From an uncultured virus (IMG/VR IMGVR_UViG_2061766007_000803) (taxonomy: Duplodnaviria; Heunggongvirae; Uroviricota; Caudoviricetes), in the IMG/VR virus record IMGVR_UViG_2061766007_000803: a stretch of 64,000 nt of DNA; one strand, 5' to 3'. A program made the translations under genes and the position numbers. The notes beneath the pieces are model-generated. The model had not been told where the DNA came from and ran no database searches. It saw nothing but the letters and a program-made list of their open reading frames with translations. Positions 37,454 to 42,971 of this stretch are shown here, piece after piece. Every line of letters begins with the position of its first letter. Position 1 is the stretch's first letter.

Positions 37454-37597
37454 ACTTCAAACTCCTTTCTTAGGACAAGTATAGTATATATCATTAATGG
37501 GATTTTGTCAATAACGGGACTTAGGTGGTCTTCACCTAAGATTATAGTTGATTTTATATATAAAATATAATATACTATATTCGAAGGGGGAATACGA

Positions 37598-37945
37598 ATG
37601 AGTACATATAAGGAAACGGATGCATATCCGGAGATTAATGCAATTTTTAGAAAGTATAAAATTTCATCCTATATCTGTGCGCGTTTTGAAACTTTGGTAG
37701 AAACTTTGAGTGATTCTAATCAAGGTTTTTTTGCTCATCATTTTCTTAGAGCAATAAGAGATGGTGTATCAGATTGGGTGATTTATAAAGAAGAAGATAA
37801 AAAAGAATATGATATTACTGTGGAGATATTGGATTTGCTGGAAGGAGTAATAATTACTTCTGAAGAAAAAAGATGTGATGAAAGTAGTTATATGTTTGCA
37901 GAATGGCAACTGTTTAACATATTTTCTAATTCAAAAGAGCCTTAA
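37598..37945 (+). CDS. Hypothetical protein, E/DLLDG paralog family
   Basis: EILDLLEGV; own promoter. Confidence 0.65.
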   Translation: MSTYKETDAYPEINAIFRKYKISSYICARFETLVETLSDSNQGFFAHHFLRAIRDGVSDWVIYKEEDKKEYDITVEILDLLEGVIITSEEKRCDESSYMFAEWQLFNIFSNSKEP

Positions 37946-38024
37946 TAGGCTTTTGTTTGATTTAGGTGACATTCACCTAAGGATATTCTTGACTTTTCCC
38001 TATAATGTGATATAATACAATTGT

Positions 38025-38600
38025 TCCAAGGGAAACGGAAACACACCGGACAAGGGCTTAAGACCTCTACGGTGGAATAGTAGATCAAATGATTGAAGCT
38101 TCGTTCCTAAGGAAAAGTGGTATTGACGAGTGCCCATTTTTAAGACATCGTAAGGTCTATCCTTTCATGGTGAGCAACCGCCGCAGTTTCCAGAAGGCAA
38201 ACTGAAAAGCAACCGTGGCGAAGCAGTACTTAATTTGCCACGTATCGCAGATGCCATTCGGCGCTTTTGCACTGCGTTATCAAAGAGAGAAGTCGCACAA
38301 CCTTGCGAGGCGAGGAAGTAGGTAGAGGTTGGTAGGTAAGCTACCGTGTAGCAAGGTATGACTCCCGGTGCAGTCAGAGTGTGTATACGCACTTCAAGCA
38401 CCGTGTATCGCAGATAGGACAAGCGGTTAAGTTCCAAGGCTCATAACCTTTGGGGAGCAGGTTCGACTCCTGCATCTGCGCCTGGCCGGAGTCCCTGGGC
38501 TCAACGGATTGGCACGAAGGATTGTGCACATCGCTTCTTGCAATCGATGAGCAGGCACTCGGTGTTGCGGTTTCAGTAAGACCTTCCGTAACGAAAAGAA
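38025..38600 (+). ncRNA. Large structured non-coding RNA candidate containing a tRNA
   Basis: TTGACT-TATAAT promoter 37989-38016, no RBS-led ORF, many hairpins and long-range pairings, terminator-like hairpin with U-tract at ~38594-38625. Confidence 0.7.
38409..38481 (+). tRNA. tRNA with CAT anticodon (Met or Ile2), atypical
   Basis: Acceptor CGCAGAT/ATCTGCG, anticodon arm AAGG-CTCATAA-CCTT, T arm GCAGG-TTCGACT-CCTGC; no encoded CCA. Confidence 0.8.
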
Positions 38601-38691
38601 GAAAAAGTTAGTCTTTTTTCTTTTTACTCTATATGATTAGGTGAAGGTCACCTAAGCATATCTTCCAAAAAAAAGAGTAAGGGCATTGCCC

Positions 38692-39420
38692 TTACTCGTT
38701 TGCGGTATTCTTACGCTGAAGCATAATCCAATTGTACAGACCGATAACTGCCATAATCAGATAAATGCTTTTCTTCGTAAGATACACAGGGTCAAAGTGC
38801 TGAATATACATTGCAACCGCAACCACATCCGTAATCAACCACCATGCATACTGTTCACGATACCGAAGCATCTGGAGTGCAGTAGCAACAAGACCGATTG
38901 CAACGGTTGCCGCATCCAACCATGCAACGTTACCACCGATACGCACAAGGATTGCATGGTACAGAATGGTCATTCCACCGACAAGACCTACGCAAAGAAC
39001 GTTCTGTTTCCAATTCAGTTTCTTTGCCATAGTCAGTTTCTTATCGTCATTATCACGGTGCTTTACCCAACAATACCATCCCATGATATTCGTGGGCAGA
39101 TAGAAAAGCATTTCAAGTGCGAATGTACCATAAATCTTCCAATACCACAGATATACGGCATATACAAGGGTATTGACAATGCCGAACACATAGTTGGCAA
39201 TGTTTGCCTTGGCACAGAAGAAGATACATACCACACCGCAAATGGCAGAGAAGAAGTTAATCACAGTCAACCATCCGGGGTTACCATTGGGGTTGGGATT
39301 CACAAATGCGGTTACCATCGCATAAGCGGCGATAGCAATCATAATGATTGCCATAATCCACTCATACCACTTGAGGGACTTAAAACTTTCTTTCAGATAC
39401 AGTTTCATCAAATCATCCAT
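38692..39420 (-). CDS. pnuC: Nicotinamide riboside transporter PnuC
   Basis: Multi-TM; NY.FGI.N, GWY.W, WLDA, RYREQYAWW..D, G.YNW. Confidence 0.88.
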   Translation of the reverse strand: MDDLMKLYLKESFKSLKWYEWIMAIIMIAIAAYAMVTAFVNPNPNGNPGWLTVINFFSAICGVVCIFFCAKANIANYVFGIVNTLVYAVYLWYWKIYGTFALEMLFYLPTNIMGWYCWVKHRDNDDKKLTMAKKLNWKQNVLCVGLVGGMTILYHAILVRIGGNVAWLDAATVAIGLVATALQMLRYREQYAWWLITDVVAVAMYIQHFDPVYLTKKSIYLIMAVIGLYNWIMLQRKNTANE

Positions 39421-39932
39421 CCTTTCGCTTCATCTTCGGTCATGTTGCGCACCATTGTTGCGCTGATAGGGACTTCGTTTCTTTTGGGGTCAATGATGCA
39501 GTAGGTTGCAAAGGGATATGCCCTTTCAAAATAGGGGCGATATTCTTCTTCACTTCCGAATACTGCATCAAATCGCCCTTCTTTGCAAGCGTTCAGAATA
39601 ATGGGAGTTTCCATATCCCAATCTTCTTTACCGTTTGCATCACGGCAAGTTGCCATATCAGCGTATACCGGAATTACTCGTCCGTTATACTGCGAAGCAA
39701 CTCGCTGAACCGTTTCCCAACGGTATTCCGGTTTCAGCTTAAGCCAATCATATCCACCACCACTTCCACGCTGGGCGAACGATTGCATGATAGCATCTTC
39801 CTGTTCTCCATTCACGCACAGTATCAGATATACCCGTTCACAGAGTTCAAGTGCTTTTTCAAGGCAATACAGATGCCCTTTGTGGAAAGGCATGAACTTT
39901 CCACCATACATTCCGAGTTTGTACTCGTACAT
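39408..39932 (-). CDS. nadR: NadR-type NMN adenylyltransferase domain (no kinase domain)
   Basis: GGKFMPFHKGH (HxGH), FGSEEEY, PISATMVR; overlaps pnuC. Confidence 0.82.
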   Translation of the reverse strand: MYEYKLGMYGGKFMPFHKGHLYCLEKALELCERVYLILCVNGEQEDAIMQSFAQRGSGGGYDWLKLKPEYRWETVQRVASQYNGRVIPVYADMATCRDANGKEDWDMETPIILNACKEGRFDAVFGSEEEYRPYFERAYPFATYCIIDPKRNEVPISATMVRNMTEDEAKGWMI

Positions 39933-41466: not shown

Positions 41467-41552
41467 TACACCCCTTAAAAGTATACTTAGGTGGAAGTCA
41501 CCTAAGTATAGTATAAAAAAAAGACCGCCATTGGCGGTCTGTACCTCGGCAA

Positions 41553-42040
41553 TTAAGCCTTGGTGTAGTAGGACTTCTTATCGCCGTCCTTGTTGGTCAG
41601 AGTCAGAATACCCTGCTCGACCAGACGCTTGGCGCTGGAGCCAACCGCCATAACGGTTACGTTCTCGGCAACCTGACCCTTGAGGGCGCCCAGGATGTCG
41701 GTGGCGGTAAACTCGGTAAAGGCAGGCAGAGCGCACACCTTGGCATCGAGTTCGTCACGGCGAGCCTGTGCTTCGGGGTTGGCACCCTTCACCTTGGCAG
41801 GCTTGTTTGCCTTCTCCGCTTCACGCAGAGCGACCTTGGCTTCATATGCCTTGTACGCTTCAATCGCCGCCTCGGCGTTGAAAGCCTTGTGGTTCTTGGT
41901 GTCCTTGGCGAGAGCCACACCAACCGCAATCTTGGCATAGCCGTCCTCGGTGGGGACGATGACAAAATTGGTGTTGTTNNNNNNNNNNNNNNNNNNNNNN
42001 NNNNNNNNNGGACAGTGTTGAGGATTTCGTTTACATTCAT
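41553..42040 (-). CDS. Protein with C-terminal winged-HTH
   Basis: FTATDIL..VTVMAVGSSAKRLVEQGIL..KKSYY; start before N gap. Confidence 0.65.
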
Positions 42041-42688: not shown

Positions 42689-42971
42689 GTTCAGCTCACC
42701 TTCCCAAAGCGAGATTCGTAGGTCTGAACGAACTTCTGTTCCCATACCGGCAGGCTTTCAATGAACGTTTTACGTTCTTCTTCCGTCTTAAAGAAGCGAT
42801 ACCGACCGAAAGATTTTACCACATACAGAATACCCATTTCAAACTCTCCTTTCTCTGTTCCCTTGGAACAATTATATAATACTATAGTGTAAGTTACTTG
42901 TCAACCATATGATTAGGTGGCTTCCACCTAAGATATGTTCAAGCGGCAAAAGCCGCTTAAATGCTTTCTTT

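Follow-up and report, generated by a model that had tools for sequence, protein, structure and literature searches.

A mosaic, tRNA-bearing RNA cassette behind an early-type promoter in an uncultured cattle-gut phage: a candidate modular phage RNA family

Large structured RNAs of the GOLLD and ROOL type, encoded by phages near transfer RNAs (tRNAs), are abundant, form striking cages and have no known function. Phage T4 reportedly makes two stable, untranslated RNAs, species 1 and 2, which are co-transcribed with a tRNA cluster and released by the tRNA-processing enzymes. ROOL was first found in cow rumen metagenomes, is ~580 nucleotides (nt) long and occurs in phages and prophages near tRNAs (PMC5737381); GOLLD has a 3’ region conserved throughout and a linker that sometimes holds tRNAs (PMC12286853). 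In T4-type phages promoter-stem-loop (PeSL) cassettes frame small variable units (PMC2839356 and PMC4122927). Here we describe a protein-free RNA cassette of ~600 bases (38023 to ~38626, plus strand) with a tRNA inside it, from an uncultured cattle-gut phage. It lies in a 64,000-nt stretch of DNA analysed as a whole (the window; IMG/VR record IMGVR_UViG_2061766007_000803).

A reading of the cassette from its letters alone (the sequence-only reading) had assigned it either to GOLLD or ROOL or to a new large non-coding RNA class. The setting is of the GOLLD/ROOL kind, with phage genes indicated by PHROG and Pfam hits and a tRNA inside the unit. With ROOL the cassette further shares the rumen/cow origin, a size of ~580 nt and a phage setting near tRNAs, and with GOLLD that it is a large untranslated phage RNA next to tRNAs, with a variable and a conserved part. 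Rfam 15 holds ROOL as RF03087 (574-position model, 99.1 bits) and GOLLD as RF02032 (150 bits), RF01998 being a piece of a group II intron. The search that the sequence-only reading had called for returned the tRNA alone, both in the whole window (gathering score) and in 37900-38750 (E up to 10), and 20 related loci gave tRNA only at E up to 1. The ROOL and GOLLD models had no match in five related phage records, nor had they any in the control genomes. Membership of either family is therefore not upheld; as to a new class, the family does lie outside Rfam 15, but a single fold of ~570 nt wrapped around the tRNA is not what was found. GOLLD has its conserved region at the 3’ end whereas here it is the 5’ head that is conserved and the trailer is not; modules are exchanged one by one, and there is no covariance-model match. 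ROOL differs likewise in the lack of a model match and in that the present family is a chain of optional modules subject to whole-module insertions and replacements. The T4 species 1 and 2 RNAs, said to be stable untranslated phage RNAs on a tRNA-bearing transcript with a function still not known, are similar to that extent, but compared by description they are small single units and not modular chains behind a conserved head.

On balance we lean towards the cassette being a member of a new modular phage RNA family in which the tRNA is one optional module, and not one giant fold. Its promoter (37989-38016, plus strand) is of the early type, with TTGACT, a 16-nt spacer and a TG-extended TATAAT, and agrees with the consensus at 11 of 12 positions, so that a promoter of its own, as first proposed, is borne out. 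The identical promoter and leader stand at the front of every family member. The cassette has a G+C content of 0.47-0.555 as against 0.30-0.36 in the adjacent plus strand genes.

The head comprises the first 113 nt of the RNA (38023-38135) and is always found directly behind the same promoter and leader. According to alignments and folding, its conserved 5’ leader, GUUCCAAGGGAA, pairs with 38107-38114 to form helix P1 around a variable interior (38023-38118, plus strand). The head hairpin (38119-38134, plus strand), GGUAUU-GACG-AGUGCC following GAAAAG, is the most conserved element of the family, the general motif of which is GAAAAG-GGNNNU-GACG-ANNNCC behind the common promoter and leader. In 31 sequences 100% of the cells of the GGNNNU-GACG-ANNNCC stem are paired, and the loop and the preceding GAAAAG are invariant. 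In all subtypes the segment just 5’ of GAAAAG can serve as a partner for the invariant 5’ leader, and this partner strand varies from continuous pairs in some members to a tandem A-A or A-G mismatch in others; since the 5’ strand of P1 never varies, two-sided covariation does not arise for this helix. The interior differs between subtypes, and one DNA sequencing run (X3) has 99 other letters in place of 38035-38109. The window thus carries all the elements that define the head family (leader GUUCCAAGG, P1, GAAAAG and the GACG hairpin behind an early promoter). A covariance model of the head (R1) finds it there as a single copy at 38023-38135 with 73.6 bits, a score that follows by construction as the window is in the seed. 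Of 16 related phage records, 9 contain the head by the same model; more distant records, related through PnuC, the product of the gene downstream of the cassette, contain none.

Two further ideas about the head were rejected. A kissing interaction between the GACG loop and a head loop shows no covariation, the head loop varying while the GACG loop is constant. The hammerhead ribozyme core consists of a conserved heptamer and a GAAA element in a three-stem arrangement; a hammerhead-like heptamer is present, located in the loop of a covarying hairpin, but the window has U where the core requires C, and no Rfam ribozyme matched in the window or in the 20 related loci.

The leader itself is not confined to the RNA. 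The sequence AATTGTTCCAAGGGA, first taken as specific to it, also precedes protein genes and so belongs to the promoter/leader, and a conserved leader, AATTGTYCNAAGGGA, stands behind the -10 box in some of the early promoters, among them those of protein-coding units. The AATTGTYCNAAGGGA sites are at 38019 and, on the minus strand, at 42859, 42190, 48382, 48874, 49237, 51642, 47309 and 36908; the minus-strand example at 42873 belongs to a protein-coding unit, with an ATG near 42836.

Relatives were sought by pattern. The head-hairpin pattern in IMG/VR gave 34 loci; 8 of these belong to the family, and the other 26 matched by chance in sequence unrelated to it. A stricter version applied to metagenomes gave 36 loci, every one with the promoter and leader, and the loci retrieved reduce to 36 distinct cassettes with 30 distinct heads. 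They range from ~160 to more than 600 nt, from head plus terminator upwards: in L050, L053 and L088 a terminator hairpin comes immediately after the head, and in L060 and L089 the RNA continues into an open reading frame (ORF) with a ribosome-binding site. A tRNA is held by only two of the 36 cassettes, that of the window and L076, the sole other one with an embedded tRNA-Met, although tRNAs lie inside or near several relatives. Among 13 IMG/VR loci fetched around PnuC relatives the cassette was beside PnuC in none; in the closest IMG/VR records ORF-free cassettes that start with the same promoter and leader lie elsewhere in the record.

The related phages carry other units of this sort. Further ORF-free units or recurring modules were noted in L019 (1320-1505), in L015 (1700-1800) and in the cassettes L058, L063, L077, L082, L087 and L059. 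Among the modules absent from the window are one of ~110 nt starting UUUACUGGGAUGG and one of ~230 nt starting with a hairpin plus UAUCAAAGAUACG, and these extra modules have no Rfam match. A stretch of L088 (~1330-1400; cassette ~420-490), downstream of a second small promoter, has a T-arm-like GGGTTCAAATCCC hairpin. ARAGORN makes no call there; the stretch may be a tRNA-like element.

The modular reading draws on the comparison of close relatives. L076 is the closest, with a head 97% identical to that of the window. Relative to it the window has a 107-nt insertion within 38136-38248, followed by 110 nt at 96-100% identity; L076 then holds ~130 nt that the window is missing, after which come the pseudoknot, the tRNA and trailers that cannot be aligned. 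The insert (38136-38248, plus strand; 113 nt, absent from L076) has hairpins at 38186-38206 and 38214-38242. A 63-nt block of it (38156-38217) recurs with 98% identity in a different cassette of two other phages (L015, 1501-1563, with a 1-nt indel). Contigs from two DNA sequencing runs, X3 and X5, resemble the window at 95-99% and retain the tRNA and trailer, but in them 38297/38300-38396 is replaced by 102-105 other letters. These insertions and replacements have sharp borders between flanks of 95-100% identity, from which it follows that close relatives differ by whole modules. Two hairpins proposed for this part, CAGTTT/AAACTG and CGTGGCGAA/TTTGCCACG, do occur in the minimum free energy (MFE) fold, but the block that holds them is absent from L076; three substitutions in the run contigs keep the pairing of the second, a weak point in its favour.

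The segment between the insert and module B (38249-38298, plus strand) consists of a hairpin and a UAUCAAAGA motif and is 96% identical to L076. By eye it resembles the opening part of a larger module, E, present in L059, L067, L087 and L115.

In module B (38299-38358, plus strand) the closing stem pairs 38300-38306 with 38351-38357 and a hairpin within it pairs 38331-38335 with 38341-38345; 38307-38330 is a G-rich unpaired strand with four GG runs and 38346-38350 is GUGUA. The general layout, which the window follows, is closing helix, GAGG and G-rich strand, hairpin, GUA, closing helix. A regular expression that required the inner four closing pairs found 20 distinct copies in the family; the outer three pairs and the inner hairpin were not preselected. 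Twenty of the 36 cassettes carry one or two copies, and in L115 the module lies behind the leader without the head hairpin. The closing stem is 94.3% paired with double changes at five of seven pairs, and none of 500 shuffles reached its covariation score; when the partner is shifted by one column pairing falls to 36-45%. One of the outer pairs is C-G in 11 copies, U-A in 8 and a mismatch in one. The inner hairpin, counted when it had at least five base pairs (bp), a loop of 3-8 nt and an end 2-3 nt before the invariant GUA, is present in 17 of 20 copies as against a mean of 2 and a maximum of 8 in shuffled sequences, with many types of pair per position. On either side of the closing helix are GUA and GA, which may resemble a bulged-G/S-turn junction. 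Two of the hairpins of the sequence-only reading, TCGCA/TGCGA and GCTAC/GTAGC, clash with these covarying stems and are probably not formed. In IMG/VR the module B pattern gave eight loci, four of them family members and four chance matches in coding sequence. An 8-nt complement between the head and this module (38067-38074 and 38320-38327) was discarded, being at chance level and missing from other members.

The G-rich strand between the two helices is 16-37 nt long and unpaired in MFE folds. A pattern of four G runs (G2+ N1-7, loops of at most 7 nt) is present in 14 of 20 copies, that of the window included; the G-quadruplex option of ViennaRNA does not favour such a structure, predicting it in two of 20 copies only. 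Module B, in which four conserved GG runs lie next to a GUA/GA junction, may yet be a two-tier G-quadruplex aptamer of natural origin or serve to dock a host factor.

Downstream is a pseudoknot module (38359-38408, plus strand) that abuts the tRNA. Stem S1 pairs 38360-38363 with 38372-38375, S2 pairs 38366-38371 with 38398-38403, and an inner hairpin occupies 38378-38393. In L076 S1 is UCUG/CAGA in place of the GACU/AGUC of the window, all four pairs being compensated at identical spacing, while the S2 strands CGGTGC and GCACCG are unchanged and have the same geometry; the inner hairpin has been swapped for another. The pseudoknot CGGTGC/GCACCG proposed at the outset is thus supported by the geometry and the S1 compensation in these two sequences, as is the TGACT/AGTCA hairpin by the four compensatory pairs. 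A third proposed hairpin, AGTGTG/CGCACT, is found in the window, but L076 has a different one at the same place.

The embedded tRNA, likewise noticed from the letters alone, was confirmed by both ARAGORN and Rfam (RF00005, 45 bits against a threshold of 29) as a tRNA-Met with anticodon CAU (38409-38482, plus strand). It has no encoded CCA and its discriminator is C; in L076 it is 85% identical, with compensated pairs in the anticodon stem. Initiator tRNAs are recognized by an unpaired 1-72 and three consecutive G-C pairs in the anticodon stem. Here position 1 pairs with 72 and there are two, not three, such pairs, pointing to an elongator tRNA-Met or a lysidine-modified tRNA-Ile, two possibilities that the sequence does not tell apart. 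An 11-nt direct repeat, GTATCGCAGAT, lies at 38242-38252 and 38405-38415; the second copy is the tRNA 5’ end, and the first is at the 3’ border of the window-specific insert, with just 5 nt of it shared by L076. The first copy could compete for the 3’ acceptor strand of the tRNA.

The trailer (38483-38593, plus strand) folds into two local hairpins, at ~38485-38563 and 38564-38592. It has no match in 117 loci and cannot be aligned with L076, although it is kept in runs X3 and X5; the proposed CATCG/CGATG hairpin is located in it and has no homologue. An A/U-rich hairpin followed by a U run (~38596-38626, plus strand), with a 12-bp A/U stem in the fold, is the probable 3’ end of the RNA.

The front of the cassette is covered by contigs from two RNA libraries, both metatranscriptome runs of a single study: one of 285 nt on 38036-38319 and the other of 301 nt on 38036-38334. 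Their word depths are 60.2 and 19.7 as against 2-4.5 for contigs on the flanking genes, a contrast that is a weak hint only, contig word depth being unable to rank genes. Contigs of this kind reveal neither ends, strand nor level, and DNA can occur in RNA libraries, so that they are only a hint that part of the RNA occurs in RNA samples. The tRNA, the trailer and 37505-38009 are uncovered, which counts as no evidence either way. The contig ends at 38036 and 38319/38334 are near strain branch points and hence say nothing about the ends of the RNA. A 206-nt RNA-library contig of run X20, one of these two runs, with the head hairpin between other flanks, aligns at 38107-38138; it comes from another family member and has the top word depth among all the aligned pieces.

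From these data the following picture may be drawn. The segment from 38023 to ~38626 would be one early transcription unit giving an untranslated composite RNA, an “RNA operon”. Behind the head it would consist of independently folding, self-closed modules (insert, module B and pseudoknot), then the tRNA, a trailer that evolves fast and a weak terminator. Such modules would be exchanged among related phages by recombination at their borders, behind the same promoter and leader. Host ribonuclease (RNase) P and RNase Z would presumably cut out the tRNA, leaving a stable structured 5’ RNA of ~385 nt, and the modules other than the tRNA may have roles in trans during early infection, where they could bind factors of the host or the phage, decoy them or be scaffolds for them. 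A bolder version, which we offer only tentatively, regards the family as a combinatorial kit of self-closed RNA domains behind a common promoter and head, swapped between phages as an arsenal of decoys or aptamers. The tRNA with its own upstream pseudoknot would then be one plug-in and module B the commonest.

Several observations weigh against a modular family of functional RNAs. Double changes in the head hairpin occur only in L015, at two pairs, and as the pattern used for retrieval fixed most of the letters of this hairpin its support is mainly sequence conservation, and biased. The pseudoknot module is present only in the window and L076 among the 117 loci, and rests on those two sequences. 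The trailer and the insert specific to the window could be non-functional filler. The thermodynamic signal is unremarkable, with a whole-cassette folding z-score of -1.83 on the plus strand, which is no better than the -2.37 of the reverse complement. The terminator at 38596-38626 is weak: with fewer than three G-C pairs its hairpin was not listed by the terminator scan. Lastly, only contigs of the runs were aligned, and it is by inference that the RNA is one transcript of 600 nt, is cut at the tRNA and has its 3’ end where proposed.

A plainer explanation is that this is an ordinary tRNA gene of a phage, long in leader and trailer, and that its flanks are functionless debris of recombination or decayed modules. 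The unconserved trailer, the tolerance of large insertions and deletions and the ordinary folding z-scores are what it would lead one to expect, and with so few tRNA-bearing cassettes the link between tRNA and family is a loose one. It is nevertheless unlikely in view of the head and module B, which are conserved and covarying in cassettes that have no tRNA, of the minimal members made of head plus terminator, of the RNA-library contigs over the leader part, and of a pseudoknot geometry kept through four compensated pairs.

Untranslated structured operons need protection from termination, as is established for the ribosomal RNA operons. By that precedent the head could be a cis-acting leader, whether a nut/put-like antitermination element or a protein-binding site that takes RNA polymerase through the untranslated, hairpin-rich RNA, or a stabiliser of the transcript, and everything behind it cargo. 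Its constant position right after the early promoter start, the invariance of its hairpin loop and GAAAAG, and the two members in which the RNA runs on into an ORF with a ribosome-binding site (L060 and L089) are all in keeping with such a role. Where the terminator stands right behind the head (L050, L053 and L088), on the other hand, there is nothing to read through. L115 has modules and no head hairpin, and no candidate binding protein was identified. We regard this explanation as improbable too.

The modular reading also has to be set against a single large ornate RNA of the GOLLD/ROOL type, with a global fold closed around the tRNA by long-range pairs. A size of ~600 nt, a phage setting and a tRNA inside are as in GOLLD (PMC12286853), the window does contain the complements of 7 and 6 nt, and the MFE fold of the whole cassette uses some long-range pairs. 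The two pairs on which the sequence-only reading had relied, GAGTGCC at 38128 with GGCACTC at 38554 and AACCGC at ~38176 with GCGGTT at ~38567, are not conserved. GAGTGCC forms the 3’ side of the conserved head hairpin, AACCGC (38176) falls in the insert missing from L076, and GGCACTC and GCGGTT are both in the non-conserved trailer, where they are locally paired in the fold; neither of these two words is found in L076. Long-range pairs across the tRNA hence compete with supported local hairpins. With no Rfam match to ROOL or GOLLD, a trailer that is self-folding and without a match in the 117 loci, and modules replaced singly in close relatives, a giant fold is a very improbable account of the cassette.

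The sequence-only reading had seen no ORF led by a ribosome-binding site, and none that is conserved is present: the one plus strand ORF of at least 40 codons (38450-38611), with a TTG start, overlaps the tRNA and is not conserved, and neither is a 38-codon frame from ATG 38090 that runs through the head hairpin. That this latter frame encodes a small protein is scarcely credible, for although each of the 36 cassettes has one frame open across the hairpin, it varies from 8 to 93 codons with starts that are not conserved, stops just after the hairpin in L054, is upset by a 4-nt change in length between two conserved blocks (L016 versus L019) and by the 1-nt indel in the 63-nt block of L015, has no Shine-Dalgarno match before 38090, and crosses 24 conserved bases that are invariant at every codon position.

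The cassette is framed by two copies of a repeated hairpin, TAGGTG-N5-CACCTA. The first (37961-37981, plus strand; TTTAGGTG-N5-CACCTAAG) is directly upstream of the promoter and was terminator-like in the scan, and the next is at 38636-38656. In all there are 44 copies in intergenic gaps between 26249 and 53306, compared with 0.11 expected, and for 24 of them one flank has a sigma-70-like promoter no more than 70 nt away. With a repeated stem-loop and an early promoter between small variable genes, the arrangement answers the definition of a PeSL-type border, and by analogy these hairpins look like promoter/terminator cassette borders among small genes. The similarity to PeSL cassettes is that a repeated stem-loop and early promoter frame small, swappable units in a hyperplastic region; the repeat sequence here is another one, so that the likeness is by arrangement alone, and one of the units here is an RNA that is shuffled inside as well.

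The window is crowded with small ORFs, many of them without matches. The PHROG and Pfam hits nearby include a deoxyribonucleotidase, a PcfJ-like protein and an AAA ATPase. Convergent with the cassette are the genes of a PnuC-type nicotinamide mononucleotide transporter (38692-39420, minus strand) and a nicotinamide-nucleotide adenylyltransferase (39408-39932, minus strand), both assigned by PHROG/Pfam, which together (38692-39932) make up a phage pair for the salvage of nicotinamide adenine dinucleotide. A GC-rich region at 41500-41900, considered as a second RNA, turned out to be a protein gene (41553-42040, minus strand). It has a G+C content of 0.53-0.615 as against 0.30-0.38 for its neighbours and two tandem promoters upstream, and is interrupted by 31 masked bases (N run 41979-42009). 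This gene may be a recent acquisition.

Near-identical DNA occurs in runs labelled as bovine gut metagenomes, and a relative with 95-99% identity over long pieces is present in a run of another study. In INPHARED neither the RNA (blastn) nor the 535-residue neighbouring protein (tblastn) had a relative, and PnuC reached at most 35% identity. In IMG/VR the upstream 115-residue ORF had no relative and a 20-nt exact piece of the pseudoknot had no match. Among 185,579 species genomes the head pattern had no match; the promoter-plus-leader pattern was found in one 6,956-bp contig (L117), recorded under the name of a metagenome-assembled genome of a ruminal Fibrobacter. At 1471-1625 of this contig the -10 box and leader are as in the family; ~125 nt further on comes a gene, and there is neither head nor tRNA. 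It is a weak hint at the host, or else a mis-binned phage contig, and is too weak to name a host. Literature searches yielded no description of the family. In a partial search of the supplements of PMC10690425, which list 8,495 candidate RNAs from IMG/VR, none of six contig numbers was found, and the family may be listed there.

The family described here lies outside Rfam 15 and differs in architecture from GOLLD and ROOL in having a constant head followed by exchangeable, self-closed modules, one of which is a tRNA. The natural swaps between near-identical flanks delimit single modules, which can thus be tested one by one for binding, folding and G-quadruplex formation. If the modules do form a kit, the chain would be a set of early-expressed RNA decoys or aptamers and not one ribozyme-like machine. 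The few named families may give too narrow a picture of the “ornate RNAs” that phages carry close to tRNAs, a class that could be both wider and more modular, and domain shuffling at the level of RNA may be routine in gut phages.

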